This document shows, piece after piece, positions 13,627-32,000 of a DNA stretch of 32,000 bases (its first letter is position 1; the number at the start of each line of letters is the position of its first letter). The translations under genes and the position numbers were made by a program. The DNA lies in NCBI RefSeq assembly GCF_018336915.1, contig NZ_CP064924.1, positions 210,001-242,000 of the forward strand, written 5' to 3'. The notes below the pieces were generated by a model, which was given only the letters and a program-made list of their open reading frames with translations, was not told the DNA's origin and made no database searches. The stretch is from Acaryochloris marina S15. Its GTDB lineage: Bacteria; Cyanobacteriota; Cyanobacteriia; Thermosynechococcales; Thermosynechococcaceae.

Positions 13627-14936
13627 GTAGTGAGAAATTACCAAAAGGTTATAAGCAGACTGAGGTTGGGGTTATTCCAGAAGATTGGGAATTAGATACG
13701 ATTGGACAATCTATGCGTCTGATAAATGGACGAGCATTCAAACCAAGTGACTGGACAGATCAAGGTACACCAATTATCAGAATTCAAAATTTAAATGATT
13801 CAAATGCTTCCTTTAATTATTGTTCTGACGCCACATACATTGAAGATAAGCATCGACTCGAAGTAGGTGATCTTGTTTTTGCCTGGTCAGGAACCAAAGG
13901 GTCATCTTTCGGAGCAAGAATATGGCCTGGGCCATGTGGAGTATTGAATCAGCATATATTTAAGATCATTGCAAATAAGGATAAACTCACACATCAATAT
14001 GCGTTTCTGACTTTGCTAAAGGTTCAAGAAGATATTGAGAAACATGCACATGGCTTCAAAGCATCATTTGTACATGTTAAAAAGGCAGATTTAGTTGGTG
14101 TTCAATTAGCTGTTCCTCCGATAAAAGAACAAAAAGCGATCGCAACTACTCTAAGCGACACCGACGCCCTCATCGAAGCCTTAGAACAACTCATCGCCAA
14201 AAAGCGCCACATCAAACAAGGCACCATGCAGGAATTGCTGACAGGCAAGCGGCGATTACCAGGATTTGGGGAGGGGAAAGGTTATAAGCAGACTGAGATT
14301 GGGGTTATTCCTGAAGATTGGGATTTAGAAAATTTTGGCAATTTAGTCGATTACACAAAAGGATATGCTTTTAAGTCTGAAGAATATACAGATTGTGGAG
14401 TTCGAATCGTCAGAGTTAGTGATACAACTTTTGACACAATTAATAATGATAATGCTGTTTTTATAAATGCTAATTCAGTCTACGAATATAGGAAGTGGAA
14501 ATTACGAGAGTACGATCTTATTTTCTCGACAGTTGGTTCAAAACCACCGATGTACGACTCTCTAGTTGGGAAGGCAATTTTAGTTACACAGCAGCATGCT
14601 GGTAGTTTATTGAACCAGAATGCAGTGTTGATCCGGGCCAAACGATACAGTGCAGAAACTCAGTGTTTTTTGCTGAATCATTTTCGAACCGAAAGATATA
14701 TAAACTATATTGAAATAATTTTTAGAGGTAATGCTAATCAAGCTAGCATCACGCTAGAAGACTTGTTTAAGTTCAAACTACCTCTTCCCTCTTCAGAAGA
14801 ACAAGAAGCGATCGCAACCATCCTCTCCGACATGGACACCGAAATCGCCACCCTCGAAGCCAAGCTAATAAAAACCCGCCAACTCAAACAAGGCATGATG
14901 CACAACCTACTCACCGGGAGGATTCGCCTCGTATGA
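13623..14936 (+). CDS. hsdS: type I restriction-modification system, specificity subunit S (two target recognition domains, TRDs)
   Basis: A GYKQTE[VI]GVIPEDW box occurs twice. Two conserved helices are present: EQKAIATTLSDTDALIEALEQLIAKKRHIKQGTMQELLTG and EQEAIATILSDMDTEIATLEAKLIKTRQLKQGMMHNLLTG. Confidence 0.9.
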   Translation: MSSEKLPKGYKQTEVGVIPEDWELDTIGQSMRLINGRAFKPSDWTDQGTPIIRIQNLNDSNASFNYCSDATYIEDKHRLEVGDLVFAWSGTKGSSFGARIWPGPCGVLNQHIFKIIANKDKLTHQYAFLTLLKVQEDIEKHAHGFKASFVHVKKADLVGVQLAVPPIKEQKAIATTLSDTDALIEALEQLIAKKRHIKQGTMQELLTGKRRLPGFGEGKGYKQTEIGVIPEDWDLENFGNLVDYTKGYAFKSEEYTDCGVRIVRVSDTTFDTINNDNAVFINANSVYEYRKWKLREYDLIFSTVGSKPPMYDSLVGKAILVTQQHAGSLLNQNAVLIRAKRYSAETQCFLLNHFRTERYINYIEIIFRGNANQASITLEDLFKFKLPLPSSEEQEAIATILSDMDTEIATLEAKLIKTRQLKQGMMHNLLTGRIRLV

Positions 14937-17900: not shown

Positions 17901-18064
17901 TTACCCAAATCGATGAGACGATCAGGAGAGTGCGCCCCGACGCATGGCGAGACAACGGGGGTCCAAAAGAGCAGCAGATTAAAACCGCACTTTATGGGAT
18001 TCTTCAAGATGTTGATAAAGTTGAACAGATTTTTCTGATTATCAAGGCGCAACTAGAGTATTAG
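14933..18064 (+). CDS. hsdR: type I restriction endonuclease subunit R
   Basis: 1043 aa. The Walker A motif is HTQGSGKSITM, the DEAH-box motif DECH is at 16079-16090, and TGTPL is present. It is coupled to hsdS by a 4-nt overlap. Confidence 0.9.
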   Translation: MSIGKPERVTQNRVVDLFRDELSYDYLGNWEYRESNSNIEDPLLTNYLNQKGYTPKQISSALYILHIEADNPNRSLYDNNKEIYSLLRYGVQVKPSASENTETVQLINWENPEQNHFAIAEEVTVYGNKEKRPDIVLYLNGIAIGVLELKNSRVSIGDGIRQSLTNQRPEFIGAFFSTVQIIFAGNDTEGLQYGAIGTPEKYFLKWKEDEQDNSRYKLDKYLLKICNKQRLLDLIHNFVLFDAGTKKLPRVHQYFGIKAAQDHVRRSEGGIIWHTQGSGKSITMVLLAKWTLANNPNARIVIVTDRDELDKQIKNVFNDAGETISRTRSGKDLMAQLGQAKPRLLCSLVHKFGKRNVKNFDQFITDLEAQPSPTVGEVFVFVDECHRTQSKRGKLHRTMKALMPDATFIGFTGTPLLKKDKATSIETFGSYIHTYKFSEAVADEIVLDLVYEARDINQTLGSEDRVDAWFEAKTKGLNDWQKAALREQWGTMQKVLSSRSRMNRVVSDIVFDFGVKPRLSNDRGNAFLVASSIYEACKYYELFQKTVFKGKCAVVTSYNPQTKHITTEDTGANTETDKEFIFNLYTELLTNITAQPNKTKTETYEDQSKELFKDQPANMKLLIVVDKLLTGFDAPSCTYLYIDKSMQDHGLFQAICRVNRLDGNDKDFGYIVDYKDLFRKVENAISVYTSDLDHGDLEGGDSEILLQDHLTKGRHRLDDAIEEIVLLCEPVQPPRDELDYIHYFCGNTELPEDLKLREPQRVALYKATAALVRAYANIADALEAAGYGPADIARIKKRLDDTLNLREIIRKASNETIDLKAYEADMRHLIDTYIEASESRKISPFDEMPLLEIIAKVGIDKAIDDLPPGLKRNNQAVAETIENNVRSTIVQESLRDPAYYAKMSALLDEIIEARQQKAIEYEDYLQQVAELVKQVDAGQSEDTPEQLNTPGRRALYNLLRQDALGIGPENDSDPSTSTDQSQEADLLECVTQIDETIRRVRPDAWRDNGGPKEQQIKTALYGILQDVDKVEQIFLIIKAQLEY

Positions 18065-18079
18065 CAGGGTTTGCAGAAT

Positions 18080-18802
18080 ATGGATGAAAGACAAACCATC
18101 GAACTGGGCGATATCACCGTAGACGTCGTGAAAAAGGACATCAAGAATCTCCACCTCAGCGTCTATCCCCCCAACGGCAATGTGCGGATCTCAGCACCGC
18201 AGCGAATGGATCTAGCCACCATCCGCCTCTTTGCTGTCTCTAAACTGCGATGGATTAAACAGGAACAGCGTAAGCAACGCGCTCAAGAACGGGAAGCCCC
18301 CCGCGAATACCTCAACCGGGAAAGTCACTATCTGTGGGGCAAACGCTATCTCCTAGACGTAGTGGAGAAGGATGCTCCCCCTAACCTCAATCACAACCAT
18401 AGCCAAATGACCCTGCAAGTCCGCCCAGGGGCCGATGCCGCTAAGAAGCGTGCCATCATTGATGAGTCCTATCGTCAGCAACTCAAGTCAGCCATCCCTC
18501 CCTTGATCGCTAAATGGGAACAGCTTATGGGGGTGACAGTGGCTGACTTCACCGTCAGGAAGATGAAAACTAAATGGGGAAGCTGTAGTCCAGAGTCAAG
18601 AACGATTCGGTTCAATCTAGACTTAGCGAAGAAGCCCCCTGCTTTTCTTGAATATGTGGTTGTTCATGAGATGGTTCACTTGTTAGAGCCAACCCATAAC
18701 TCCCATTTCATCGCATTGATGGATAAATTCATGCCCAAATGGAAGTTTTATAGAGACGTCCTGAACCGTCTGCCCCTCTCTTATAAACGTTGGGACAAGT
18801 AG
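18080..18802 (+). CDS. M48/YgjP-like (DUF45, COG1451) zinc metallopeptidase
   Basis: HEMVH (HExxH) is at 18666-18680, within WGSCS...IRFN...VVVHEMVHLLEPTHNSHF. The start is either the ATG at 18080 or the TTG at 18071. It begins 7-16 nt after the hsdR stop. Confidence 0.8.
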   Translation: MDERQTIELGDITVDVVKKDIKNLHLSVYPPNGNVRISAPQRMDLATIRLFAVSKLRWIKQEQRKQRAQEREAPREYLNRESHYLWGKRYLLDVVEKDAPPNLNHNHSQMTLQVRPGADAAKKRAIIDESYRQQLKSAIPPLIAKWEQLMGVTVADFTVRKMKTKWGSCSPESRTIRFNLDLAKKPPAFLEYVVVHEMVHLLEPTHNSHFIALMDKFMPKWKFYRDVLNRLPLSYKRWDK

Positions 18803-20163: not shown

Positions 20164-23100
20164 TTATTGTGGTGTGTTAAAAGTCCCTACAGGGGGCAGA
20201 TTGAAATGTTTACGGGGATCTACCTCTACTCCCGAGTTGCGATCGCCAGTAACGTAGCCTTCGATTACGCCTAAATCAATGTGAGGCCCTGTTGATCCTC
20301 CTGTTGATCCAACTTCCCCGATTGGTTGGCCGGGATCTACAGTATCCCCCGCTTTTACGTAATTAACTTTGTTGTGGCCATACCAGGTAGCCAAGCCGTT
20401 CCCGTGGTCAATCAGGATCCAGTTTCCATAAAGGCCGTTCCATTTACTCTCGACAACTACCCCGCCATCCGCAGCGACAAAAGGTGTCCCCTCATAATGG
20501 GCAAGGTCGATTCCATGATGGAAGCTTTGCCTTCCTGTGGTTGGGCTAATTCTTGGGCCGTAATTACTTGTCAGCTTGTAATCGTACTTAGCCAAGGGAT
20601 CGGAAAGCCTACCTGACGCAACCCCCGAACCCTGTACAAAATTACTATTGTCAATGTTGCTCTGACCAGGGCCATTACTAGGTCTACAAGGCAACCTCCT
20701 AGACGCCACACCAACAGGCTCATTCGTTGAAGCATCCCCAGTCGGACCATATTTCTCAAAATTCGCTGGATTGCTCCAAACTGCACTTTGTTGAGGACCA
20801 CCCGGCAGCGAAGGCCACTGTAGTGGCCTCAACACCCGATCCGCCAGGGCAAAATCCCCTCTCTGAATCGCGGCCATCAGATCCACATTCTTCTCAGCAC
20901 CAATAATCTTGATCCACTCCACCGCTGCTTGAGCCGCAACCGCTCGGTCTCGTGTCCAGCCATCTATTCCTGTTCGTTGCAGAAGACTAGTTCTAGACTC
21001 TGGAGTGAACTGGTAAATACCGTAAGCGCCTGTCTCAGAATTGGGCTTCCAATTGGTCCCGTCAGTGCTTTCGCCTATTCTGATTCGGGCGAGATACTGC
21101 CTGAGATTATGGTCAGGATCAGCAGGGGTTGAGGTTGTGCTTCCCTGGCGACTCACTGAACCTGGTCTACCCGGAATACCCTGCAATTGCGGCGCACCTG
21201 ACGCTCCATCAATCGGTTGAAGGACGCCATTAGATGACGCAGTAGTACCTTTATTCTGACTCCCAGCCGCATTCGCAAAGGTCTGTTGCGCCTGACTTGT
21301 CCCCACAAACCGCCAGTGCCAAGGCTCAAATATAACGCCTTGGCTATTCCCCTGGGGAAATGACAACTCAAACCCGTACTTCCCGGCATTGGCTTGCATC
21401 CAGGCATATTCAGGTGTCTGTGCCCAAGACTCATTCAGGCTGGCATTCTGGTTGTTGCCTACATCCACCGCTAGACCCGTGTGGTGCTCACTATATCCAG
21501 GTGGAGCAACTGACTTGGCAACTTCTTCAGCAGATTGGTTCGCCAACTTTCTATCCCAATTAGCCTGCTGATGAGACACGGATCGGAAGCCTGATACTGC
21601 TTTAATATCCAACCCTTGAGCCGCTGCATCTGCTCTCAGTTGCTCAAAGGCTTGGGCTGCATCTGGGGCTAGGGTTTCCTGTACTCCATCGACGGAGATC
21701 ACGTTGACCAATTGACCCGTGTTTTCTGCATAGGCTAAGTGACCATATTTTGAATTCGATGGAGAGACATCACTCTGGCCCGACGCGGCAATAAGCTGAT
21801 TGGGGTCACAGTACACCTGACTGAGGCCCGCTGCCGTCAACGCCCGGTCTCTGAACTTGGCAATCTCAGCAGGCAGACTTCTTCGACTCGCCACTAGGAA
21901 CAAGCCCCCTTCCCGGACGGTGAACGGTGTGGGGATCACAATGAAGTGGGGGGTACACTGCTCTCCCAGAATCGGGATGGAGTAGCAGAACTGGATGGCA
22001 AGATGCAGCCTCGCCGTGCTGGGCTTATCAGGATATTCTTTAATATTCTTCAACACAAACTTAGTATTGGAGCCTGTACCAAAGGGATGGATGCCTGCAG
22101 GTTCCCAACCCCCATTCACCCACTTCATGAGTCCCTTACCACCCTTCACGCCTTGACCGTTCTTGCCCTTGGAGTGCCCCTGTACCCATTGCTTACCTTC
22201 AATATCATCATCCCCCGTTACTTGGGCGAGAGGAGAGCTAATAAACTTCCGCATCTCAAAGTGAGGACAGTTGTCTGCTCTCTGGTTTTTGGTTTTGCCA
22301 AGGGTGCATTTAATCGGTCTAAACTTCTGGTCTTCACTGCCACCCGATAAGGCATGTTGAACGGATGGCTCCTCTGGTCCTTCTACGCCACTGTAGGCGA
22401 TATCAAATCGGGCAAATAAGTCCCCAGCAAGGAAGCTAAAGGCCAAGCCAAAGGGCAGCTTATTGACTGGAATCTCAGACAGACCCGGAACAGAGTTGAT
22501 CAGTTCATCCTCTACCCCAGGTATTTCCTCAATCGCCAAGTCAGCAATCTTGGGTAGGGTCTGCTCAATGGGCTGATTGACGAGATCGGGAACCGCGCCC
22601 AAGGGTAAATCTTTCAGCTCTGGGACAGCCTTGATCACTTCCTTGACAGCAATATTCGTCCCCTTTGCCAGAATGTAGGCTTGCGCCCGCTTCCTCACCT
22701 GTTGCCAGTTGCCATTAATGACATCACCGACGAGAGGGACAATCTGATTGACGGGCAGCTTCTTGAGCGTTGGGCCAATCTTCTTACCAATGCCCGCTAA
22801 CTCAATCTGCTCAGCCTTAGAAATTACCCCCTGCCAGTTCCCCCGCGTTAGGTCTTGGAGAGGAATGCCTTTGAGAGCGGGAATCTTACTGAGCTTAGTA
22901 ATCAAAACTTTCTGGCCCGTGGACAGTGCCGCTTGCTGAAGGTGCTTCCCCGCTTGAGACGGGTCATGCAACACTCCTAATGCTGCTTGAATGGCAGGGG
23001 CGGCATCATCAACGGTGACTTTCTCGCCATTGTTGAGCTTGGTGTAGAGGTTATCGACTTCATCAACCGTCAGGCCATAAACGAGGGGCACATCTCCAAT

Positions 23101-23493
23101 GGGCACCCCAGCGATATTTGTCCCTTGCTGAGCGGAAATATCTCTCAAGGTGAGCTTGGTAAACCCAGCCGTGACAGGGTTCTGCTGCAAGTCTCCAAAT
23201 TTGAGGATTTGGTCAGGAGTTGCCCCCTGGGGCCATGCCCGATCAATCTGGTAGGGAAGCTGCACCCCATTGGGTAAGGGTGGGATTTCAACATACCCTG
23301 CCTGCTCTGCACTCGTGAGCTGCTGGAATGTCGGGGAAGGGCCAGGGTCTGGGTCATAGTAGAGGCCCGGTAAGTTGACTGGAGTATCCGGGCTGAGTGC
23401 AGCCGTCTGTTGCTGTTGCTGAGCAAGGACAGGGGCTATCTGCGTTAAGGAGGGCAGGCTAGCCAGGAAAAATGCAAGTAGTTTCTGTTTCAT
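20164..23493 (-). CDS. secreted multidomain peptidoglycan hydrolase: unknown N-terminal half + VanY/M15 D,D-carboxypeptidase + SLT-like lytic transglycosylase + M23 endopeptidase
   Basis: Signal peptide MKQKLLAFFLASLPSLTQIAPVLA. VanY block (about 21300-21640): SGFRS...PPGYSEHHTGLAVDV...FEPWHWRF. SLT-like block (about 20840-21108): IGESTDG...GAYGIYQF. M23 block (about 20167-20590): FHHGIDL...GNWILIDHGNGLATWYGH...GSTGGSTGPH. Confidence 0.85.
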   Translation of the reverse strand: MKQKLLAFFLASLPSLTQIAPVLAQQQQQTAALSPDTPVNLPGLYYDPDPGPSPTFQQLTSAEQAGYVEIPPLPNGVQLPYQIDRAWPQGATPDQILKFGDLQQNPVTAGFTKLTLRDISAQQGTNIAGVPIGDVPLVYGLTVDEVDNLYTKLNNGEKVTVDDAAPAIQAALGVLHDPSQAGKHLQQAALSTGQKVLITKLSKIPALKGIPLQDLTRGNWQGVISKAEQIELAGIGKKIGPTLKKLPVNQIVPLVGDVINGNWQQVRKRAQAYILAKGTNIAVKEVIKAVPELKDLPLGAVPDLVNQPIEQTLPKIADLAIEEIPGVEDELINSVPGLSEIPVNKLPFGLAFSFLAGDLFARFDIAYSGVEGPEEPSVQHALSGGSEDQKFRPIKCTLGKTKNQRADNCPHFEMRKFISSPLAQVTGDDDIEGKQWVQGHSKGKNGQGVKGGKGLMKWVNGGWEPAGIHPFGTGSNTKFVLKNIKEYPDKPSTARLHLAIQFCYSIPILGEQCTPHFIVIPTPFTVREGGLFLVASRRSLPAEIAKFRDRALTAAGLSQVYCDPNQLIAASGQSDVSPSNSKYGHLAYAENTGQLVNVISVDGVQETLAPDAAQAFEQLRADAAAQGLDIKAVSGFRSVSHQQANWDRKLANQSAEEVAKSVAPPGYSEHHTGLAVDVGNNQNASLNESWAQTPEYAWMQANAGKYGFELSFPQGNSQGVIFEPWHWRFVGTSQAQQTFANAAGSQNKGTTASSNGVLQPIDGASGAPQLQGIPGRPGSVSRQGSTTSTPADPDHNLRQYLARIRIGESTDGTNWKPNSETGAYGIYQFTPESRTSLLQRTGIDGWTRDRAVAAQAAVEWIKIIGAEKNVDLMAAIQRGDFALADRVLRPLQWPSLPGGPQQSAVWSNPANFEKYGPTGDASTNEPVGVASRRLPCRPSNGPGQSNIDNSNFVQGSGVASGRLSDPLAKYDYKLTSNYGPRISPTTGRQSFHHGIDLAHYEGTPFVAADGGVVVESKWNGLYGNWILIDHGNGLATWYGHNKVNYVKAGDTVDPGQPIGEVGSTGGSTGPHIDLGVIEGYVTGDRNSGVEVDPRKHFNLPPVGTFNTPQ

Positions 23494-23533: not shown

Positions 23534-23616
23534 GAAAAACGGCCCCGATTGGAGCCGCTTTTTGAAGAACTAAATTGGGAAATTGAAGGCGATTTACTTA
23601 AGGGGAAAAATCTAGG
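23534..23616 (+). repeat. direct repeat copy A (pairs with 26009-26091)
   Basis: By hand, an ungapped alignment at a constant offset of 2475 nt gives roughly 75-80% identity over 83 bp: gaaaaacggcccc...tggagccgct...taaattgg...gcgatttactt...aaaat.c.agg. Weaker similarity continues to about 23680. Confidence 0.7.
23535..23563. terminator. bidirectional intrinsic-terminator-like hairpin inside repeat A
   Basis: aaaaa-cggcccc-gatt-ggagccg-cttttt. The stem is 7 bp with one C/A mismatch, flanked by A5 and T5. Confidence 0.5.
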
Positions 23617-23769
23617 GAATCATCACCCGGCAGCGCAAGGTGAGTAAGCAGAGGCACCGATCGAGTTGGCCGATCCATTGAGTGTATAGGTCAGAAGTTT
23701 TCGTGTGCTGACTCTCTCAAGTTACGATGCTGTGAGAAGTGGCCGTTTAAAGCATTATCGGGGTGTGGG

Positions 23770-25995
23770 GTGATTGCTGGATTGAATGACTGGAATACAA
23801 TGTCTTGGTTGTGGTTGCTAGCTGATACCGCAGCTAAAAAAGCAGATGACTCTAAAACCAAGCAAATTCTAGATTTCCTCAACAATATTCCGATGATTGG
23901 ATGGGGGATTGCAGGGTTTGCTGTAATAGCCCTAGCGACAGCAGCGATCGCTAAGTGGACAGGCAACCTAGATAAAATCATCGTCTTTGGTCAAAAGTAC
24001 TTCTCTCGCAAGAAACCAGAGATCACAGAAGCACAACGACTAAAAGCACGGCAAGATCTGATTGAAATCTTGCTCAAGCAGGTTGTAAAACGCTTGGAAG
24101 ACTCCCTACATCACAAGATTCGGATTGATTTGATGGGGGAGGTGCAAAGACAAAGGATTGGAAAGGGTAATTTACAACCTGATCAAGAAAAAGAAACCGA
24201 CAAATCTCCTGATAATTTCATCAACCGCACACTCAATCTTTTTAAGAAAACCACTCCACCCAAACCTGTTAGTGATCACACCTCAACGCTAGAACTCTTT
24301 GAAGAGGAAGATATTCAGGGGCGTTTATTGATTTTAGGTGAACCCGGTTCTGGCAAGACAAATGAGCTGCTAGTACTAGCTAAAGATCTACTTACTCAAG
24401 CAAAGCATTCCCCAGAAAAGCCAATTCCAGTGATTTTTGAACTATCTGAGTGGAATGCAGAACTGGAGTTTGCTGATTGGCTTAGTCAGCAACTGCTTAA
24501 AAAGTACAGCATTCCTTTGGTTATCTCAAAGCACTGGATCGAACACAAGCAGTTGCTTCCTCTTCTGGATGGCTTAGACGAATTGAGAAGAGTGGATAAA
24601 GACGATGAAGTCACATCAGAAGATCTAGATAAACGCCGAATAGCACAACAGATTCAATGTGTACGAAAAATCAATGCTTTTCTAGATAATTTCTCTTTAC
24701 CCCTTATTGTGTGTTGTCGGCGTAAGGAATATGAAGCTCTCGAAGCACAAAATGAATATCTAAAGCGCTTAAATGGAGCGATTTACCTACAAGCACTTGA
24801 AGATAAGCAGATCCAAGAATATCTTCAGAGATTAGACCGAGCCTCATTATGGGATGCACTTCAAAGTCAGCCTGAACTCCTGGAATTAGCTCATTCACCA
24901 TTATTTTTGATTATTTTGGTGGTTGCATATCAGGGGAAAAACATTCATAGCTCAGAAGATTTGCTTGATGAATATATCCATAAGCAAGTTCATGATCTAA
25001 ACAATCAAGGAGCATACCCTCCAGGGAAAGAACCTACACCAGAGGAAACACATTATTACCTGAGTTGGTTAGCGACCAAACTAGATTTTGAGGAAACAAC
25101 AGAATTTCTAATCGAGCAACTGCAACCTTCATGGGTTGATATCCCCAAAGCTCGTAAACAGTATCGCTTGATGGTCGGGCTGAGTTTCGGGCTGAGTGTC
25201 GGGCTGAGTGTCGGGCTGATTGTCGGGCTGAGTGTCGGGCTGATTTTCGGGCTGATTTTCGGGCTGATTTTCGGGCTGATTGGAGGGCTGATTTTCGGGC
25301 TGAGTGGAGGGCTGAGTGGGGAACTGAGTGGTATAAAAACAAAAGAGAAGCTAAGCTTCTCTTGGAGTAGTTCCTTTCGTGGGCTGAGTGTCGGGCTGAT
25401 TTTCGGGCTGATTGGAGGGCTGATTTTCGGGCTGATTGGAGGGCTGATTTTCGGGCTGAGTGGAGGGCTGATTTTCGGGCTGATTTTCGGGCTGAGTGTC
25501 GGGCTGAGTGTCGGGCTGATTGGAGGAATAAAAACTTCTGAAATTGATGTTCGAGATAAAATAAATCCTAATCAAGGAATTAAAGACTCTCTCAAAAATG
25601 GGCTGATTGGAGGGCTGAGTGTCGGGCTAATTTTCGGGCTGAGTGTCGGGCTGATTTTCGGGCTGATTTTCGGGCTGAGTGTCGGGCTGAGTGTCGGGCT
25701 GATTGGAGGGCTGAGTTTCGGGCTGATTGGAGGGCTGATTGGAGGGCTGAGTGTCGGGCTGAGTTTCGGGTTGATTGTCGGGCTGATTGGAGGGCTGATT
25801 GGAGGGCTGAAAACGGTTTTACAACACATTTCCTTGCGTATAGTCCTCTACCAATCAGGAGTAGCCCCCTGGAACTACGCAAGGTTCCTCGAACATGCAG
25901 AAAACCATCGGTTCATTCAGCGAACTGGTGGGCGTTACCGTTTTGTCCATGACCTGCTTCGCAAACGTTTCGCTGCAACTTTGAAAGAGAGTTAG
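23770..25995 (+). CDS. NACHT/STAND P-loop NTPase with an N-terminal TM helix and a C-terminal array of GxxxG tetrapeptide repeats
   Basis: 741 aa with a GTG start. The Walker A motif GEPGSGKT is at 24337-24360 and the Walker B motif is LLPLLDGLDEL. The C-terminal tail FLEHAENHRFIQRTGGRYRFVHDLLRKRFA is typical of cyanobacterial NACHT proteins. The three hydrophobic repeat arrays are listed separately. Confidence 0.8.
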   Translation: MIAGLNDWNTMSWLWLLADTAAKKADDSKTKQILDFLNNIPMIGWGIAGFAVIALATAAIAKWTGNLDKIIVFGQKYFSRKKPEITEAQRLKARQDLIEILLKQVVKRLEDSLHHKIRIDLMGEVQRQRIGKGNLQPDQEKETDKSPDNFINRTLNLFKKTTPPKPVSDHTSTLELFEEEDIQGRLLILGEPGSGKTNELLVLAKDLLTQAKHSPEKPIPVIFELSEWNAELEFADWLSQQLLKKYSIPLVISKHWIEHKQLLPLLDGLDELRRVDKDDEVTSEDLDKRRIAQQIQCVRKINAFLDNFSLPLIVCCRRKEYEALEAQNEYLKRLNGAIYLQALEDKQIQEYLQRLDRASLWDALQSQPELLELAHSPLFLIILVVAYQGKNIHSSEDLLDEYIHKQVHDLNNQGAYPPGKEPTPEETHYYLSWLATKLDFEETTEFLIEQLQPSWVDIPKARKQYRLMVGLSFGLSVGLSVGLIVGLSVGLIFGLIFGLIFGLIGGLIFGLSGGLSGELSGIKTKEKLSFSWSSSFRGLSVGLIFGLIGGLIFGLIGGLIFGLSGGLIFGLIFGLSVGLSVGLIGGIKTSEIDVRDKINPNQGIKDSLKNGLIGGLSVGLIFGLSVGLIFGLIFGLSVGLSVGLIGGLSFGLIGGLIGGLSVGLSFGLIVGLIGGLIGGLKTVLQHISLRIVLYQSGVAPWNYARFLEHAENHRFIQRTGGRYRFVHDLLRKRFAATLKES
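25177..25332 (+). repeat. tandem 12-nt coding repeat, array 1 (13 units: GLSF GLSV GLSV GLIV GLSV GLIF x3 GLIG GLIF GLSG GLSG ELSG)
   Basis: I counted the units gggctga[gt]t[gt][gt][ac] directly. Many neighbouring units are identical, for example gggctgattttc three times at 25237-25272. Confidence 0.95.
25381..25524 (+). repeat. tandem 12-nt coding repeat, array 2 (12 units)
   Basis: GLSV GLIF GLIG GLIF GLIG GLIF GLSG GLIF GLIF GLSV GLSV GLIG. A 16-codon polar spacer (IKTKEKLSFSWSSSFR) separates it from array 1. Confidence 0.95.
25600..25803 (+). repeat. tandem 12-nt coding repeat, array 3 (17 units)
   Basis: GLIG GLSV GLIF GLSV GLIF GLIF GLSV GLSV GLIG GLSF GLIG GLIG GLSV GLSF GLIV GLIG GLIG, followed by GLKT. 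It is preceded by the polar spacer IKTSEIDVRDKINPNQGIKDSLKN. Confidence 0.95.
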
Positions 25996-26008: not shown

Positions 26009-26091
26009 GAAAAACGGCCCCTGGTGGAGCCGCTATCTGACGAATTAAATTGGCAACCTGGAAGCGATTTACTTCAGGAGCAAAATCCAGG
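26009..26091 (+). repeat. direct repeat copy B (pairs with 23534-23616)
   Basis: See copy A. Copy B overlaps the 3' end of the 36-codon micro-ORF and the terminator of the T4SS-like operon. Confidence 0.7.
26010..26032 (-). terminator. intrinsic-terminator-like hairpin ending the minus-strand T4SS-like operon (inside repeat B)
   Basis: aaaaa-cggcccc-tggt-ggagccg. On the minus strand the hairpin is followed by ttttt. On the plus strand, downstream of the NACHT gene, it is followed only by ctatct. Confidence 0.5.
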
Positions 26092-26179
26092 CGATAACCC
26101 CCAAAATCCAACCGATGGGGCCTGCAAGGAATAGGAAGGGCGTTAAGACGATCAGAACGATGACGAGACAACCTTTCAT
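26069..26179 (-). CDS. unannotated 36-aa hydrophobic micro-protein, translationally coupled to the VirB10-like gene
   Basis: This ORF is below the track cut-off. The ATG shares one base with the upstream TAA (TAATG). Its translation is MKGCLVIVLIVLTPFLFLAGPIGWILGVIAWILLLK. It ends just before the terminator hairpin. Confidence 0.4.
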   Translation of the reverse strand: MKGCLVIVLIVLTPFLFLAGPIGWILGVIAWILLLK

Positions 26180-27624
26180 TACACGCCCTCCATGAAATAG
26201 ATTTCAACTTCCTTGTTGAAGTGATAGAGGCCATTCCGAGAACCACTGGAGGAACGGCTAGGGGCTAGACTATTGACGACAGACGAGGCTCTATCTCCCA
26301 CACTGCTGGAGCGGAGCTGGTCAATCCCCACATTCAGGCCCGCCCTGAGTAGTTTGTTACCAAAGCCTTCACCCTGACCTTTGAGCTTGGCTTGCAGATG
26401 TGGAGACTGCTTGTACTGAATGACAGCAACAGGGGTCTTCCTGGACTCTGGTGACTCACCCGTTAGATCCATATGCTCAATGGGCTGTTGGTTGACTTCC
26501 ACGACTTGCATACTCAAAAAGTCACCCTCGGCACTAGTCACTTCAGCAATGACCTTGGAACCTTTCTTCGCCATTGTCCCTAAGTCTTCACTGAGGGTTA
26601 ATAGATACCGCTGACCGATGATCGCGTCACTGTTCTGGGGTATCCAGGTAATGGGATTGTCCAGCTTCGCCTTAGCCGTGGTGCCAGCAGCAATCAATCC
26701 TTTACCCAATGGGTTACTGGTTGCTGGGTATAGGGCCGTGGGTGAATCCGTGACGACTTGGTTATCCTCCAGCAAGTCACCCGTGAGGGAAGCGACCAGA
26801 ACGCCTTGGGGTGGGGCTGGTGGGGTTTGAGCAATGGGTTTCGTGGTTATCGGTTTACGGACGGGGTGAGAGGTGGAAACCTTGATGGGACGAATGGGTT
26901 TAGGTTGGACGGGCTTAGGGGCAAAAGCCGATTGTTTGCTGAGGCTGAAGTTACTAGCAGGCTGGGGGGCAGCTTGAGCAACGGGCTGAGGTTGTGGTCT
27001 AGGTGCTGGAGGTCTAGCCGCAACCACGGGTTGAGTCTTGGGTGCGGGTCTGTCCCTGTAGACGATTCGGGGCTTGGGCTGGGTCCGAGGAACGGCGCTT
27101 TGATAGCGAATCGGTCGGGTCACTCGATGGGTCGGACTGGGAGGTCTCCCTTGAGGCTTGGGAGTCGGGGGAACGGCTGCGGGCTTTGGCCCCGCCTTCT
27201 GAGCAGGAGAAACGGGCTGACCGTCCAAGGACTGCCGCAATGCCGCGAGTTCCACCTTCAGATCCGCATTCTCTTGGGTGAGTACTTCTTCTTGACTCTG
27301 GGCTACCGTAGAACCCGTCTCTTCACTTTGGGGGTTTGACTCAGCCTGTTGAGGGGCGCTCCCATACAGCATCCCCGTGGCGAGTAAGGCAAAGGGTGTC
27401 CCCACGACGGTGAGGAGCAAAAGCTGAAACCACAGCCGCTTATACAGCTTGTTCTTGGGGACGGTGGTCTTTGTCTCTGGCATCGCTAGGTTAGCGAGGG
27501 ATACCGCTGGTGTACGGGTCTCTTTAGGATCATCCTGCTTCGCGTTAGATGTTCCCTCGGATGGGGCGGGTTTGCGCTTGAGCAGTACATCTCTAGCATG
27601 TTTGGCTTTTTGGGTCGTGTTCAT
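26179..27624 (-). CDS. VirB10/TrbI-like bitopic protein (architecture-based call)
   Basis: The architecture is a basic N-terminus, one TM helix (LWFQLLLLTVVGTPFALLATGMLYG), a coiled coil, a Pro-rich region of about 130 aa (PKPAAVPPTPKPQGRPPSP...) and a C-terminal globular domain of about 190 aa. Its ATG overlaps the upstream stop (ATGA). Confidence 0.5.
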   Translation of the reverse strand: MNTTQKAKHARDVLLKRKPAPSEGTSNAKQDDPKETRTPAVSLANLAMPETKTTVPKNKLYKRLWFQLLLLTVVGTPFALLATGMLYGSAPQQAESNPQSEETGSTVAQSQEEVLTQENADLKVELAALRQSLDGQPVSPAQKAGPKPAAVPPTPKPQGRPPSPTHRVTRPIRYQSAVPRTQPKPRIVYRDRPAPKTQPVVAARPPAPRPQPQPVAQAAPQPASNFSLSKQSAFAPKPVQPKPIRPIKVSTSHPVRKPITTKPIAQTPPAPPQGVLVASLTGDLLEDNQVVTDSPTALYPATSNPLGKGLIAAGTTAKAKLDNPITWIPQNSDAIIGQRYLLTLSEDLGTMAKKGSKVIAEVTSAEGDFLSMQVVEVNQQPIEHMDLTGESPESRKTPVAVIQYKQSPHLQAKLKGQGEGFGNKLLRAGLNVGIDQLRSSSVGDRASSVVNSLAPSRSSSGSRNGLYHFNKEVEIYFMEGV

Positions 27625-28337
27625 AAGGTCACCTTTACGTCTCGGATTTCAATAATTTGCAGGCCATATTCCTGGCCCACGCGCATCAACTTGGCAAGCT
27701 GGGTCTGGTCTTGGTCTTCGGTTTTCACAAAATCAACCGCCTGGATCGTCAACTCTTGATTTAACCGCTCGATGAAGTCTCGTTCTTTATCTCGGTTATG
27801 GAGTCGGGTCGCAATCACCGTCACTTTCCACAGTCCCGGTTTGAGTTGTTCGACAACGATGTCCTTTTGCCGATCTAGAATCTGCACTTGAGCTTCCCAA
27901 TTGCCAGAGGTGTAGTTACGGAAGGGAAAGTCCTGGTCATACTTTTTGTGGATCGATTCCATCCACCCCACCCGGTAAGACAGGTCAATGGCGTAGGACA
28001 CGTCATAGAATTGAGCCGGGTACTCAATCTTGCCCTCGGTCTTCCCCTCTCCCTTGCTCCAGGAGAAGGCCGCACTCACCCACTTATGAGCAAAGTCTTG
28101 GATATGGGAGGTTTCCCGATGTCGTTTGTCTACGGACTTCGCTTCCACGGTCTGGTTGTTGGGAAGCTGCACGAACACATTGGAGAGTTCTCGTTGAGCG
28201 GCCTGCTTGCTGCTGAGGCCCACTCGAAAGAGCAGGCCGGTATTGAGTACCGTTAAACCGATGATCAGATAGGGCATCCACTTGCCTTTCTCCACGGCTT
28301 GCAAAGGGTTTTTCGGGATGGTGATTTTGGTGAGCAT
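27621..28337 (-). CDS. VirB8-like bitopic protein (architecture/position-based call)
   Basis: 238 aa with a single N-terminal TM helix (WMPYLIIGLTVLNTGLLF) followed by a soluble domain of about 190 aa. AGGAG lies 8 nt upstream. It sits between the polytopic protein and the VirB10-like gene. Confidence 0.4.
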   Translation of the reverse strand: MLTKITIPKNPLQAVEKGKWMPYLIIGLTVLNTGLLFRVGLSSKQAAQRELSNVFVQLPNNQTVEAKSVDKRHRETSHIQDFAHKWVSAAFSWSKGEGKTEGKIEYPAQFYDVSYAIDLSYRVGWMESIHKKYDQDFPFRNYTSGNWEAQVQILDRQKDIVVEQLKPGLWKVTVIATRLHNRDKERDFIERLNQELTIQAVDFVKTEDQDQTQLAKLMRVGQEYGLQIIEIRDVKVTL

Positions 28338-28348
28338 GGTGGTTTCTC

Positions 28349-29824
28349 CTAACGATTTCGCATCGCTCTGGTCTGCATAACGCTGTTGAGGGTAATCAGT
28401 CCCCCCGTCACAATGCCTGCCCCCGCTGTAGCGGCACTAGTAGCCTTGGAGCGGAAGGCATCTCCTGCTAAACCCACCCCATCGTTCACAGCTTTGTAGG
28501 CGATGTAGGGAGCAAAGATGCCGAAGAATAGGGGGAAGATTAAGGGGGTCGCAGCCACGCCCGCTAACATCACGGCCACAAACCCAATCAGGATGACGTA
28601 GGCGAGGCGCACAAGCAGGACGCGGGCGAAAAACAGCAGCCACTCCACGATGGCATTCTGGCCGTGGGGGATCGTGCCCAAGGCAAAGGCAACGGGGCCA
28701 AGTAAGGCGGCAAGTAGCAGGGACAATTCCTGACCCGCGATGAAGACCCAGGCCATCATCATGGCGATTTCCGTCAAGATTTGCTGCCAGTCTGGAGCAA
28801 TCATCTCCGCTAAGGCTAACCCTGGATTGATGGCGAATAGGGCCGTTTTGTAGGCGGCTGACGCGGCGATATCAAAGCCCTTGACGGCTAGGCCCTCCAT
28901 ATTCCTTTTAATGGCTTCTTGAGCCGTCTCCTGACTCCGCTCCGCTAATTCCAATGCGGTCTTACAGTCAGGACATCCTTCTTTAATGGTCTCTTTTTGC
29001 TCCTGAATAAAGACATCTAAAGACTGGAGGCACTGAAGCTGATTCATGGAGGCTTGTTTGTAGACCGTCGCGATTTCTTCTCCCGTCAGCTCTCGCCCCG
29101 CTTGCCGACGGGTTTCTAGTCTGCGGCCCAATTTCTTGAGGCCAATCAAGGTTTTCTCTTCTTCTGTCAGATTGACCCCAGGGAGATGGAGCTGGGCACA
29201 TTTCTTCGCTTCTTGGGAAATGACCGTCCGGGTCACTTGGGAGAACAGGGCATCATTAATGGCTAGACGGACATTAAAACCTGCGACTTGGGCCTTAGCG
29301 ACCACAGCAGGGGCCGCATTGACGATCTGCCGCATCCCATGAGCGGTATAGTAGATGGCTTGTCCTGAGTTGGCGAGGAAGAAGGACACTAAGACCACGG
29401 GGATGATGAACTTCACCCAGTCGCTGATATCACTCCCTCTTTCAAAGATCTTGCGACCAATCTTCCAGCTCCAGGTGATAAATCCCGCCAGTAGTACATA
29501 CCGGACGACATCCATAACGGCCCGGTTGTTGATGGTATTCCCCGCATTGTCAGGATCAAAGGTGCCATCCCACAGGTCATCCCACCAGGCAGCGGTTTTG
29601 GTGATGTTGTCCGTGATCCGCTGGAGGTAATCGAGGCCATTGTAATTGAGGGATTCCTTGCCCCATGCCGGGTGGGCAGTCAACAGCACCCAGCCTAGAG
29701 ACAACAGAAAAGCCAGTAGCAGAACCTTATTTTGATTCCGGTTCACCCAGTCCAGGGATCTGCGGGGTAAAGAAGGAGTATTTGGTACTCGCGACCTGGA
29801 TATCCTGCTTAAGGTCTTCTCCAT
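28349..29824 (-). CDS. VirB6/TrbL-like polytopic membrane protein (architecture-based call)
   Basis: 491 aa with about 7 hydrophobic helices and a large central soluble loop. The C-terminal TM cluster is MMMAWVFIAG...LLAALLGPVAFALG...VILIGFVAVMLAGV...IFPLFFGIFAPYIAY. The start may instead be the GTG at 29746. Confidence 0.5.
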   Translation of the reverse strand: MEKTLSRISRSRVPNTPSLPRRSLDWVNRNQNKVLLLAFLLSLGWVLLTAHPAWGKESLNYNGLDYLQRITDNITKTAAWWDDLWDGTFDPDNAGNTINNRAVMDVVRYVLLAGFITWSWKIGRKIFERGSDISDWVKFIIPVVLVSFFLANSGQAIYYTAHGMRQIVNAAPAVVAKAQVAGFNVRLAINDALFSQVTRTVISQEAKKCAQLHLPGVNLTEEEKTLIGLKKLGRRLETRRQAGRELTGEEIATVYKQASMNQLQCLQSLDVFIQEQKETIKEGCPDCKTALELAERSQETAQEAIKRNMEGLAVKGFDIAASAAYKTALFAINPGLALAEMIAPDWQQILTEIAMMMAWVFIAGQELSLLLAALLGPVAFALGTIPHGQNAIVEWLLFFARVLLVRLAYVILIGFVAVMLAGVAATPLIFPLFFGIFAPYIAYKAVNDGVGLAGDAFRSKATSAATAGAGIVTGGLITLNSVMQTRAMRNR

Positions 29825-30833
29825 TCTTCAATGCCTCTAACATGAAATTGGTCTGGGTACGCTGCTGGTTCCCCGATGCCTGAAGGAGTTCTAGCTTGCT
29901 CAATTTGCGGGTCTGCACGAGGTTCTGGCTGGCGATGGCCCCTAAGCTCCGGTTCTGATGGGCCGATGCTGCCGTCAGCCCGGTGAGCTGCTGGGAGGTC
30001 TGGGCACCAATGCTGGAGCTAAAGGCTTGCTGGAGAGAGAGGCGTTTCAAAATGCTTTGGGAGCTTTTATCTCCTTGGGCTTCGGCACCGAGCACTTGGA
30101 TTTCTTCAGCAGCGGAGACATTGGCACTCGCTTGTTCTTCACTCACCCCCACGATTTCCGTGATGCTATCTTGAGCGGCAATGGCCTCTTCTTGGGCGAG
30201 GGCAGCGGTGGCTTCCTCTGCTTGAATCAGTTCTTGGCCCTCGTCACTGAGGACTATCTGGGTCAGCTTCTCATGGAACTCTTCACCGATGGCCCGGACA
30301 TTACGGGCGATGGCATAGACTTCACGAGGGCTATTCGGCTCGATGTCCAACCGAGACGGATTATCTTCATAGGATGGCCCTTTATAGATGGGGCGTCCAT
30401 CCGTGGAGCTGCCCCCTTGAGCCGTGGTTTGGGGGGGATCGATGATGCCATATAGCACCAAGATATCGGTGACGCCTTTGAGGGCGGGCTGAAGTCGTTT
30501 ACCCGTGACGGCCCGGTAGACATTGCGGCCAATCTTGGCGGCTTTGAGGGCTTTAGACCCATGCTCAATCACTTTGAACAGGGATTTTTGGGCTTTCTTG
30601 CTCAAGATTCGGTCGAGCAGTCCTTTCGGTTGACCGTTGCCCTTATCCGAGCTGGAATAGATATCCCCGACGTTGTAAGGACTGTCACCGGGTTGACTCG
30701 CGGTGTTGCTAATCACACTGCTGTAGTCATAATCTGGCTGGGTAAAGCTCTGGGCATGAATCGGGGGGTTAACGGATACCCACAGAATCACGATCAGCAG
30801 GGGCTTCTTCAGACGCTGGGGGAAGGGGTACAT
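29727..30833 (-). CDS. secreted coiled-coil protein in the VirB5/TrbJ position
   Basis: I prefer the ATG at 30833 (MYPFPQRLKKPLLIVILWVSVNPPIHAQ), which gives a signal peptide. The C-terminal half is Q/A/E-rich and helical. The ORF-track start at 30926 would add 31 non-signal residues. Confidence 0.4.
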   Translation of the reverse strand: MYPFPQRLKKPLLIVILWVSVNPPIHAQSFTQPDYDYSSVISNTASQPGDSPYNVGDIYSSSDKGNGQPKGLLDRILSKKAQKSLFKVIEHGSKALKAAKIGRNVYRAVTGKRLQPALKGVTDILVLYGIIDPPQTTAQGGSSTDGRPIYKGPSYEDNPSRLDIEPNSPREVYAIARNVRAIGEEFHEKLTQIVLSDEGQELIQAEEATAALAQEEAIAAQDSITEIVGVSEEQASANVSAAEEIQVLGAEAQGDKSSQSILKRLSLQQAFSSSIGAQTSQQLTGLTAASAHQNRSLGAIASQNLVQTRKLSKLELLQASGNQQRTQTNFMLEALKNGEDLKQDIQVASTKYSFFTPQIPGLGEPESK

Positions 30834-32000
30834 ACTGTTCCTCTGTGATGGTGGATGGGCAGAGGCCCGCTCGGTGGGCGCGGGCGAGGAGGTCACCGTG
30901 GATGCGGTAGCCTGTAATCGGGTCATGGGGATAATGCTCTAAGATGCGGTCCCTCAATTCCACTTCTTTTTTGTCCGTGGCGACGAGGCCCATCAACATG
31001 CTGGAGGGGTTAAAGCTGACCTCCACATGCTGGTTGTCTCGTTTCCAATACCAGTAGCTCTCTTGCCGGGTATGGGAAATCCCTTTACCCACATATTTCT
31101 CTAAAATCTCTCGCCTAAATCCCAAATCGTTGCACAGGCGGTTAATGGAGATATCCTGCAATCCCCCACAAAAGATGTTTTGCAGGTTGGTGAAGATTTC
31201 ATTGCCGGCGACGGACTGATAGATGGTTTCCACTTCTGTGGCGGCAACAATATAGTTGCAGGCCCACTTGCGGCCCTCAGACGGCACTCGACCGGACAGC
31301 CGCGCATAGGAGGCAAATTTATAGATGCGGGTGCCTTCGTCGGTAATCAGAGCAGACCCTAATGTACTCATGGCCTTGCGGAGCAGCAGGTTAAAGCCCA
31401 CCATTGAGTAGATCAAGGAGTCAATGGAGTCGCTGACGTTGGTCATGGCGAGAACGAGGCATTGGACGTTGCTATCAAAGCTGGAGATGCCGTTGATGGA
31501 ACGACCTAGGGCTTTGGACAGGACGCCTTTAAGCTGGGTACGAATTAGGCCAATGGTATTTTTCTCCAGGTCGGAGATGTCCTCACGCATCACTTCTTGG
31601 ATAAACCAGTTCTCAGCAAAGCCGACGAATTCTTCATAGATGGGCATCTGCTGAGATTCAGGGGTGCCAAAGGCGGCTTCACTAGCGACCTGATAGCGGT
31701 GCTGAATCTCAGGGATGTGATGAAAGGCTTCATAGCAACGGGAGAGGAAGGAGCTGACCATTAACTCTGTGGTCGGATCATCCGTCGTGCCCATGACCAG
31801 CGCTTGCAGGATGGCGAGATGGTTGTTGAAGGCCGATTCAAACAGGTCTGCCCTCGTGGCGAGGGTGGATTTATAGCCCGGTTCACCGGGTTTGGGCAAG
31901 GCATCCACCCATCGCATATCGGGCAATTCTAGGATGTTGATGACATGCTCTTTGACGTTGTGGTAGGCCGCACTCACGCCAATCCGATTAAAGGTGTTGA
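30769..32000 (-). CDS. large conjugation/T4SS protein in the VirB4/TrbE position; N-terminal part lies beyond the right edge
   Basis: The frame stays open to position 32000; the GTG at 31977 is only the track start. GRKWACNYIVAATEVETI resembles the VirB4 RKxNxxxxxATQ block. Gene order supports the call, but no canonical Walker motifs are visible. Confidence 0.35.
   Translation of the reverse strand, partial: NTFNRIGVSAAYHNVKEHVINILELPDMRWVDALPKPGEPGYKSTLATRADLFESAFNNHLAILQALVMGTTDDPTTELMVSSFLSRCYEAFHHIPEIQHRYQVASEAAFGTPESQQMPIYEEFVGFAENWFIQEVMREDISDLEKNTIGLIRTQLKGVLSKALGRSINGISSFDSNVQCLVLAMTNVSDSIDSLIYSMVGFNLLLRKAMSTLGSALITDEGTRIYKFASYARLSGRVPSEGRKWACNYIVAATEVETIYQSVAGNEIFTNLQNIFCGGLQDISINRLCNDLGFRREILEKYVGKGISHTRQESYWYWKRDNQHVEVSFNPSSMLMGLVATDKKEVELRDRILEHYPHDPITGYRIHGDLLARAHRAGLCPSTITEEQYVPLPPASEEAPADRDSVGIR

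Follow-up and report, generated by a model that had tools for sequence, protein, structure and literature searches.

Kibby et al. ('Bacterial NLR-related proteins protect against phage', 10.1101/2022.07.19.500537; Cell 2023) classify the C-terminal parts that NACHT proteins of bacteria carry, define the NACHT module by a Walker B motif followed by the signature D[GAS]hDE, and already list "TM regions inserted into the NACHT module", TM standing for transmembrane. In clade 5 of their Table S1, members from cyanobacteria (Tolypothrix, Crocosphaera chwakensis) stand next to proteobacterial and actinobacterial ones, of which the last are labeled 'NACHT+68TM-wHTH' (wHTH, winged helix-turn-helix). 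The gene considered here is located at 23770..25995 in a stretch of 32,000 nucleotides (nt) from Acaryochloris marina S15 (contig NZ_CP064924.1, positions 210,001 to 242,000), which is called the window throughout and whose first letter is position 1. Its product likely belongs to clade 5, because the family member P0066 (WP_008272595.1) is a Crocosphaera chwakensis paralog of WP_008277957.1, which Kibby et al. list.

The window protein is a NACHT NTPase of the STAND type that carries three hydrophobic, glycine-striped arrays. These are strongly predicted to form an insertion of ~230 amino acids (aa) inside the winged-helix domain rather than a C-terminal repeat region, and the insert is strongly predicted, on structural models, to fold into three helical hairpins, i.e., six membrane helices. 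The protein class is known in outline and catalogued, and the window protein is a typical member of a large family. What appears to be undescribed so far is the glycine-zipper (GLxx) periodicity of the insert together with its encoding by a 12-nt minisatellite (GGGCTGAKTnnn) that is common to several genera; none of the papers searchable combines 'NACHT' with 'glycine zipper'.

Domain identity and the place of the arrays

The gene and its parts are as follows.

23770..25995, + strand: NACHT-family gene, 741 aa from a GTG start (open reading frame, ORF, listing)
23890..23958, + strand: N-terminal hydrophobic helix, residues 41-63 (Kyte-Doolittle maximum 2.04, K/R-rich sequence downstream)
24325..24831, + strand: NACHT nucleotide-binding domain, residues 186-354 (PF05729, invariant motifs, NLRC4 profile alignment)
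24832..25167, + strand: helical domain 1 (SPLFL) and predicted first part of the winged-helix domain (YYLSWLA helix, EFLIEQLQPSW), ending at the insertion point (NLRC4 alignment; AlphaFold2 helix H414-431 and a short strand, 731-aa numbering)
25168..25332, + strand: array 1, residues 467-521, 13 units, predicted hairpin 1 (TM1/TM2, tip G490; AlphaFold2 helices H449-479 and H481-506 in the 731-aa numbering, arms free of charged residues)
25333..25380, + strand: predicted cytoplasmic loop 1, IKTKEKLSFSWSSSFR, with a conserved 'xEKLxFS' and a net positive charge (AlphaFold2 short strand E517-520)
25381..25527, + strand: array 2, residues 538-586, 12 units, predicted hairpin 2 (TM3/TM4, tip GG557-558)
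25528..25599, + strand: predicted cytoplasmic loop 2, IKTSEIDVRDKINPNQGIKDSLKN, with a near-invariant PNQGI motif (family alignment)
25600..25806, + strand: array 3, residues 611-679, 17 units, predicted hairpin 3 (TM5/TM6, tip G643)
25807..25992, + strand: predicted C-terminal half of the winged-helix domain, LKTVLQHISLR..., helix, wing RFIQRTGGRYRFV, invariant His727, DLLRKRFAA

The real start is probably the ATG at 23800, which would give 731 aa; the homolog P0002 begins at the equivalent position.

Identification as a NACHT/STAND NTPase, which the initial annotation had proposed from the P-loop GEPGSGKT and the segment LLPLLDGLDEL, is upheld by motif, profile, and fold. Both motifs are present, the former (Walker A) at residues 190-197 (nt 24337-24360) and the latter at residues 262-272, with the Walker B/NACHT signature LLPLLDGLDE at nt 24553-24582. 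In an alignment of 89 family sequences, the G, G, K, and T of Walker A are invariant, and the D[GAS]hDE signature reads D267-G-L-D270-E271, with both aspartates invariant and the G, L, and E at least 90% conserved. An AlphaFold2 model of the whole protein built on this alignment has a mean predicted local distance difference test score (pLDDT) of 85.4 and a predicted template modeling score (pTM) of 0.78, and its top Foldseek matches in the PDB are NOD2 (5irm), NLRC4 (4kxf), and NLRP3 (7alv), with E values from 9e-7 to 1e-4 and a probability of 1.0. A family profile from which the arrays had been removed can be aligned with NLRC4 over the stretch that starts at Walker A and ends at the first winged-helix-domain helix (E=1e-7). 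The Pfam NACHT model PF05729 scores the full protein at 26.1 bits against a gathering threshold of 26.7 and at 28.2 bits once the insert is removed; nearly all homologs carry a precomputed match to it. The window protein has no NCBIfam match and no effector or adaptor domain recognized by Pfam. A match of the full-family profile to H+-pyrophosphatase (E=0.0015) was rejected as compositional, both having hydrophobic glycine-rich helices.

Glycine occupies every fourth residue over 470-521 (12 GLxx units plus ELSG), 538-586 (12 units), and 611-679 (17 units), with runs of 12, 13, and 18 glycines at i+4, and the pattern (G/A/S)xxxGxxxG is found in predicted hydrophobic helices. This agrees with the three arrays of 13, 12, and 17 G-L-[SI]-[FVG] tetrapeptides counted at the outset, and the spacers do start with IKT (residues 522-524 and 587-589), with LKT (680-682) following array 3.

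The position of the arrays differs from that first described. The initial annotation had them replace the TPR, WD40, or leucine-rich repeat (LRR) sensors of STAND proteins and regarded what follows as an independent conserved soluble tail. The alignment to NLRC4 stops at YYLSWLA, the first helix of the winged-helix domain, ~30 residues ahead of array 1. Behind array 3, the sequence extends from HISLRIV to GGRYRFVH727 and DLLRKRFAA, which AlphaFold2 renders as a helix, a beta-hairpin wing, and a helix, and its G-G-R-Y-R-F-x-H motif is invariant across the family alignment. We take this motif to be the canonical end of a NACHT winged-helix domain, comparable to 'YSFIHLSFQEFFAA' in NLRP3. The equivalent of His727 is H443 of NLRC4, the ADP sensor discussed in Kibby et al. 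(10.1101/2022.07.19.500537). Since the tail reads as the rest of the winged-helix domain, invariant histidine included, and the NLRC4 alignment ends before array 1, the arrays are to be understood as an insertion between the two halves of this domain; sensor-type repeats (WD40, TPR, pentapeptide) are added in some homologs as separate regions. The winged-helix assignment of the tail is itself a prediction from topology, motif, and literature, with no significant sequence match among its grounds.

A second AlphaFold2 run, on the winged-helix domain with its insert, reached a pLDDT of 92.2 and a pTM of 0.83. Both runs show every array as a helical hairpin with a tip of one or two glycine residues (helices 459-489/491-516, 532-556/559-586, and 602-642/644-695 in the 741-aa numbering). 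The hairpin arms contain no charged residue and have Kyte-Doolittle averages of up to 2.5-2.7, and K and R are concentrated in the two connecting loops and in the segment after the N-terminal helix. Homologs with a non-repetitive sequence (e.g., P0016 and P0019) have two ordinary hydrophobic helices and a short loop per block. The NTPase and the remaining winged-helix domain have to lie on the same side of the membrane, so that the number of spans must be even, and six fits; both connecting loops and both ends of the insert are strongly predicted to be cytoplasmic. Structure prediction, hydropathy, and charge thus agree with the suggestion that the arrays are membrane-embedded. The hairpin tips expose essentially nothing to the periplasm, and sensing of a periplasmic ligand is therefore unlikely for the window copy.

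The N-terminal hydrophobic helix noted at the outset is also found, residues 41-63 exceeding a Kyte-Doolittle threshold. This helix would be a signal-anchor and a seventh span with ~40 residues outside, the basic stretch behind it placing the NTPase in the cytoplasm; its AlphaFold2 confidence is only modest (pLDDT ~60), and it is conserved in close relatives only. The Pfam glycine-zipper families gave no match to the window protein, so that no sequence homology to the glycine-zipper toxins and channels was found. An amyloid or beta reading of the glycine-rich repeats was rejected, given the confident AlphaFold2 helices and the ordinary TM helices of the non-repetitive homologs.

The minisatellite and the protein family

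Tandem Repeats Finder reports periods of 12/24/36 nt over 25169-25810, and all 42 units come from about six dodecamers, GGGCTG-A[T/G]T-[TTC/GTC/GGA]. Glycine is GGG in 42/42 units and leucine CTG in 40/42, compared with 8/36 and 10/72 in the rest of the ORF. The array is a DNA-level tandem repeat, far beyond chance, and the window array is strongly predicted to have been homogenized by tandem duplication or gene conversion of the 12-nt unit. The bias extends to the family: across 71 loci, glycine is GGG in 67% and leucine CTG in 54% of cases within GLxx runs, while the rest of these genes has 24% and 23%. The unit GGGCTGATTnnn is also the commonest one in Crocosphaera, Scytonema, Symploca, Nostoc, and Okeania, and where a megablast search with the window met NACHT genes of Crinalium and Nostoc plasmids, the match was confined to the array.

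Several observations on the repeat stand beside these results. One codon per residue (GGG-CTG-ATT/AGT-...) is used at 25177-25815 of the window and in loci L004, L008, L009, L010, L024, L077, and others, and the founder dodecamer GGGCTGATTnnn persists with its codons across genera despite differing genomic codon usage. On the opposite strand, the repeat creates artefactual ORFs of 74-102 aa at 25034-25882 (SARKSARH..., QPENQPSN..., SPPISPT...). Diversification by a diversity-generating retroelement was considered, as the units vary at just 3-4 nt positions, and was rejected: the changes are two-state (T/G and C/A) rather than adenine-specific, and three founder units with their recombinants account for the pattern.

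A metagenome scan for four consecutive GGGCTGAKTnnn units returned at least 120 stretches. Among the matches listed, 71 fall in the NACHT family by motif, and ~10 more are family members that end at contig ends; the others include a family of small 'FNKLKxY...GLIxGLIx' proteins and GLSY/GLST arrays. For the most part, then, the GGGCTGAKTnnn array marks the NACHT family, but it also occurs outside it. An equal presence in housekeeping paralogs, which would have spoken against a link to defense, is not what the scan found. The small proteins (142-198 aa; L089, L158, L168, L182) begin with 'FNKLK[TR]Y...' and continue as GLIxGLIx from the same dodecamer, with no NACHT domain. The same GLSY array, here (GLSY)n made of GGGCTGAGTTAT repeats and followed by a hydrophobic segment, met in a scan of viral contigs at the end of the giant-virus-binned contig GVMAG-S-1101172-89 (L087, L088, L125), is unrelated to NACHT.

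A word-indexed protein search (E<=1e-3) yielded 3863 relatives of the window protein, the best 120 of which are nearly all cyanobacterial 'NACHT domain-containing protein' entries of 600-800 aa; ~110 of these 120 show, at the corresponding place, runs of four or more glycines spaced at i+4. With the 63-aa winged-helix tail as the query, 3,788 representatives at 50% identity were found (E<=1e-3, out of 1.84 billion). The initial annotation had presented the protein as an oddity, which it is not: the majority-rule consensus of the insert in the family alignment is itself GLxxGLxxGLxx, and the TM-inserted class figures in Kibby et al. A glycine at +4 follows a family median of 56% of insert glycines and 76% of those in the window copy, other offsets reaching at most 14% in the family. 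From anchor to anchor, the three blocks of the window copy measure 74/74/86 aa; the corresponding family medians are 72/72/66. Loci are mostly cyanobacterial and are also found in Chloroflexota, Calditrichaceae, Acidobacteria, Nitrosomonas, Syntrophobacteraceae, and the archaeon Methanocrinis; the non-cyanobacterial loci share the anchors QPxW, PNQGI, and HxxLR...GGxYxFxH, often with GLxx arrays. Within the PNQGI loop, the alignment shows N601 without exception and Q602, G603, and I604 with a conservation of 90% or more, and the motif recurs in members from Chloroflexota, Calditrichaceae, and Nitrosomonas as well as in TIR-fused members.

Unit counts and insert length vary widely among close relatives, a variation that a survey of homologs had been proposed to look for. 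The insert is their most variable region, with 183-309 aa and 48-65% identity; the tail is 75-93% and the N-terminal plus NACHT part 60-77% identical. Several members that keep the tail and the PNQGI loop have further domains attached: (i) an N-terminal TIR in P0171, P0201, and P0235, (ii) EAD1, WD40, and peptidase S26 in P0202, (iii) C-terminal WD40 (P0239, P0087), TPR (P0180), or pentapeptide repeats (P0023), and (iv) a signal peptidase in P0117 and P0200. Signal peptidase I (S26) repeatedly follows the winged-helix domain (P0117, P0200, P0202), once together with a SecA wing/scaffold domain, a hint that the family may be connected with the machinery for secretion or membrane insertion. P0122 (1431 aa) and P0145 (1723 aa) consist of two complete NACHT-plus-TM-insert modules fused in tandem.

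Plasmid setting of the gene

The plasmid location that had been assumed for the gene is corroborated by comparison with two other Acaryochloris plasmids: pMB01 (strain 'Moss Beach') matches the flanks in the window at 93-97% identity, and pREB1 (A. marina MBIC11017) matches the region at 75-79%. Typing assigns pREB1 to the conjugative plasmids (MOBF, MPF_T), and an 845-aa ortholog occupies the same site in it. The 2.5-kb NACHT cassette is absent from pMB01 and hence polymorphic in presence between plasmids. In the window, the cassette is bracketed by an imperfect direct repeat.

23534..23627: left-hand member of an imperfect 94-nt direct repeat (78% identity with 26009-26102; repeat search)
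26009..26102: right copy of the 94-nt imperfect direct repeat, bracketing the NACHT cassette

A single hybrid copy of this repeat and no NACHT gene are found in pMB01 (L001 5881-5943), which points either to a gain of the cassette accompanied by spacer duplication or to its loss when the two repeats recombined. The GC fraction is 0.40 in the NTPase-coding part (24001-25000) against ~0.50 in the surrounding plasmid, consistent with a foreign origin. Its absence from pMB01, the bracketing repeats, and the drop in GC together make the NACHT gene a stand-alone accessory cargo and not a part of the transfer machinery. Scanning the surroundings of the gene for promoters and terminators yielded nothing informative.

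The gene has a type I restriction-modification operon 5 kb upstream of it (10193-18802 with a trailing YgjP gene) and is flanked by a cell-wall hydrolase gene on one side and a five-ORF operon on the other.

10193-12589: HsdM
12586-13626: embedded YhcG/DUF1016 PDDEXK nuclease
13623-14936: HsdS
14933-18064: HsdR
18071-18802: YgjP-like metallopeptidase gene, after the restriction-modification operon
20164-23493, - strand: secreted cell-wall hydrolase, 1109 aa, with VanY and M23 domains
26179-31977, - strand: five-ORF operon (481, 238, 491, 399, and 402 aa), first ORF very proline-rich

In related plasmids, RGI reports the ortholog of the cell-wall hydrolase, with 33-34% identity, as a 'vanY glycopeptide resistance gene'; this is apparently an over-annotation. 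The five-ORF operon is kept in pMB01 and pREB1 and may be a divergent mating-pair-formation module; it has no Pfam or NCBIfam match and no recognizable domains of a type IV secretion system (T4SS). A further ORF of 1167 aa at 6468-9971 (+ strand) has no Pfam match.

Candidate modes of action and known systems

That the window protein is an NLR-type NTPase with a membrane-integrated winged-helix domain is held with very high confidence; what this membrane bundle does is a matter of graded likelihood. In NLRs, the winged-helix domain clamps ADP and swings off the nucleotide-binding domain on activation. Because activation releases the winged helix in this way, a bundle inserted in it would be mechanically coupled to the nucleotide state, with the cytoplasmic PNQGI loop and the strand-forming EKLxFS loop as the candidate coupling surface. 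ATP-dependent oligomerization of the NACHT module could then gather the glycine-zipper hairpins into a membrane-perturbing assembly, the membrane potential would be lost, and abortive infection or growth arrest might follow; the same bundle may double as an input that senses perturbation within the membrane. The window copy has no effector domain, and membrane perturbation is judged the most likely output. By analogy, precedents would be the toxins TelE, EsxX, and CdzC/D, channel-forming plant resistosomes, and the STAND proteins with TM effectors (PMC13581612). The complete statement, a membrane-integrated NLR-type switch with a membrane-perturbing output, is put forward tentatively and may well prove wrong in its last step.

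A number of results weigh against such an output or against the model beneath it. Stripes of GxxxG, which the initial annotation read as a pore signature, are by themselves no indication of a pore, as their role may equally be to hold the two helices of a hairpin against each other. With 32 and 36 residues, hairpin 3 has the longest arms, longer than a bilayer requires, and the topology is a prediction from hydropathy, charge, and AlphaFold2. Foldseek with the sub-model of the winged-helix domain and insert returned no significant or channel-like relative (best E 0.2; MFS, ClC, NCX, MotA), and a profile of the tail alone, a test of low power, retrieved no winged-helix domain from the PDB sequences, only chance matches (PTP-gamma, E=0.25). 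None of the clade 5 entries of Kibby et al. bears a bNACHT number, hence none was tested (10.1101/2022.07.19.500537). The PADLOC models gave only weak matches at the P-loop level to the window protein (mad8, E=0.0036; PDC-M54A, E=0.0064). No conserved partner gene was found in four distant contexts or among the 126 immediate neighbors of 71 loci; the commonest neighbor families are rare (CHAT 5, pentapeptide 4, caspase 3, Uma2 3, EAD7 2), and PADLOC recognizes few defense genes among these neighbors (caspase/CHAT 3, PbeA 2, AbiEi 1, bSEFIR 1). The anti-phage role suggested at the outset accordingly stands in part. It has no real PADLOC match behind it for the window protein itself; the N-terminal TIR or EAD1 of some family members nevertheless makes a role in conflict or defense plausible, these domains being, together with WD40 and TPR fusions, part of the domain vocabulary of NLR-like conflict systems. 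Also in favor of such a role are the CHAT, caspase, and EAD7 families among the commonest, if rare, neighbors, the type I restriction-modification operon 5 kb upstream of the gene, and the presence of the cassette in only some of the plasmids compared.

The TIR-fused relatives also bear on the choice between output and input, since in them the insert cannot be the sole effector and is more naturally a sensor or an anchor. As the main alternative, the bundle might serve only to sense an intramembrane cue (lipid state, a phage or conjugation channel, membrane potential) or to anchor the protein. The membrane would then stay undamaged, and the output would run through the helical region conserved at the N-terminus, through a recruited protein (e.g., a CHAT/caspase protease), or, in relatives, through the fused TIR or EAD1. 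Kibby et al. (10.1101/2022.07.19.500537) themselves suggest such a sensor or anchor role, and it fits the retention of the same insertion in TIR- and EAD1-fused relatives, the restriction endonuclease or cyclase N-termini of actinobacterial clade 5 members, the location of the insertion in a regulatory domain, and the conservation of the cytoplasmic PNQGI loop, the most conserved part of the insert. It accords less well with the window protein and most of its close relatives, which have no recognizable effector or adaptor domain and no conserved partner gene beside them, with tips of one or two glycines that leave nothing periplasmic for a ligand to bind, or with the separate WD40 or TPR sensor-type repeats on some relatives; on balance we consider it somewhat unlikely. 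A bolder combination makes the bundle both the sensor of a membrane insult, such as the entry of phage or conjugative DNA, and the executioner, with a pore arising upon assembly of the NACHT ring. In-frame expansion, contraction, and shuffling of units would rapidly retune helix length and packing specificity, as a membrane counterpart of LRR hypervariation, and concerted evolution would keep the founder dodecamer GGGCTGATT across genera. This elaboration of the membrane-perturbing switch is regarded as quite improbable.

The regularity of the 42 units may, conversely, be largely a neutral by-product of a minisatellite that, by slippage or gene conversion of its 12-nt unit, has overwritten ordinary TM helices, the zipper having no specific role and any hydrophobic helix of roughly suitable length being good enough. 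One codon per residue, only about six unit types, and an insert whose unit number and length (183-309 aa) vary widely among close relatives are what such a process would leave behind, and ordinary non-periodic TM helices are present at the same place in P0016, P0019, L043, and L075. The i/i+4 periodicity of glycine, however, is the family consensus in different phyla and outlasts the decay of the DNA repeat, block lengths stay near the family median, changes are invariably in frame, and most metagenomic arrays among the matches listed fall in the NACHT family, which suggests retention over drift and makes neutrality an explanation of low probability. The least probable proposal, to which we give very little credence, is that the protein takes part in plasmid conjugation or regulates it, for instance in entry exclusion or control of the mating channel. 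It draws on the position of the gene between the VanY+M23 hydrolase gene and the five-gene operon and on the ortholog at the same site of the conjugative plasmid pREB1, and against it stand the related pMB01, which has flanks 93-97% identical and no such gene, homologs in unrelated chromosomal contexts with no conserved neighbor, and a flanking operon that has no recognizable T4SS domains.

Set against known systems, the window protein is closest to the '68TM-wHTH' proteins of clade 5 in Kibby et al., in which several TM helices are inserted in the NACHT module at the winged helix-turn-helix; the window protein has six. The two also agree in distribution, being abundant in cyanobacteria and present in Actinobacteria, Proteobacteria, and Myxococcota, and in the N-terminal effectors of some members. 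The published account makes no mention of glycine periodicity or DNA repeats, both of which are seen in the protein described here. The animal NLRs NLRC4, NOD2, and NLRP3 share with it the fold, Walker A, D[GAS]hDE, helical domain 1, and a winged helix with an ADP-sensing histidine. They are soluble, with an uninterrupted winged helix, a C-terminal LRR sensor, and an N-terminal CARD or PYD effector, whereas the window protein has a six-helix membrane insert in the winged helix and no LRR, CARD, or PYD. The STAND/Avs defense proteins that combine a sensor with a TM effector domain carry their TM segments as N-terminal effector modules swapped among sensors and not as a winged-helix insertion (PMC13581612).

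Repeated GxxxG stripes in hydrophobic helices are shared with TelE, EsxX, Tde1, and CdzC/D. Glycine-zipper segments are the toxic, membrane-depolarizing part of TelE, EsxX, and CdzC/D, and in TelE and EsxX the zipper is required for depolarization or toxicity. In all these toxins, the zipper amounts to 2-4 GxxxG repeats within a single helix, and the protein is secreted or small; the window protein has 12-17 repeats per hairpin, inside an NTPase. VacA and MscS were reportedly described as glycine-zipper proteins by Kim et al. in 2005.

With ~3,800 clusters at 50% identity in several bacterial phyla and at least one archaeon, this membrane-embedded NLR-type family is large. A bundle inside the winged-helix domain suggests a direct mechanical link from nucleotide state to membrane, approachable by the hyperactivating histidine mutations already applied to soluble bNACHT proteins, and the glycine-zipper code with its minisatellite encoding offers an easy experimental handle and raises the question of how repeat dynamics shape a transmembrane domain. 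In plant CC-NLR resistosomes such as ZAR1, a membrane channel arises from oligomerization itself, which makes an enzymatic effector unnecessary. A member of the AP-ATPase/NB-ARC clade, ZAR1 is soluble until activation and then inserts an N-terminal helix, whereas the window protein is predicted to reside in the membrane at all times through its winged-helix insert. The likeness would thus be purely functional, a channel made by oligomerization being the output proposed for the window protein, and if the bundle is indeed the executioner, the family would constitute a bacterial analog of the channel-forming plant resistosomes.

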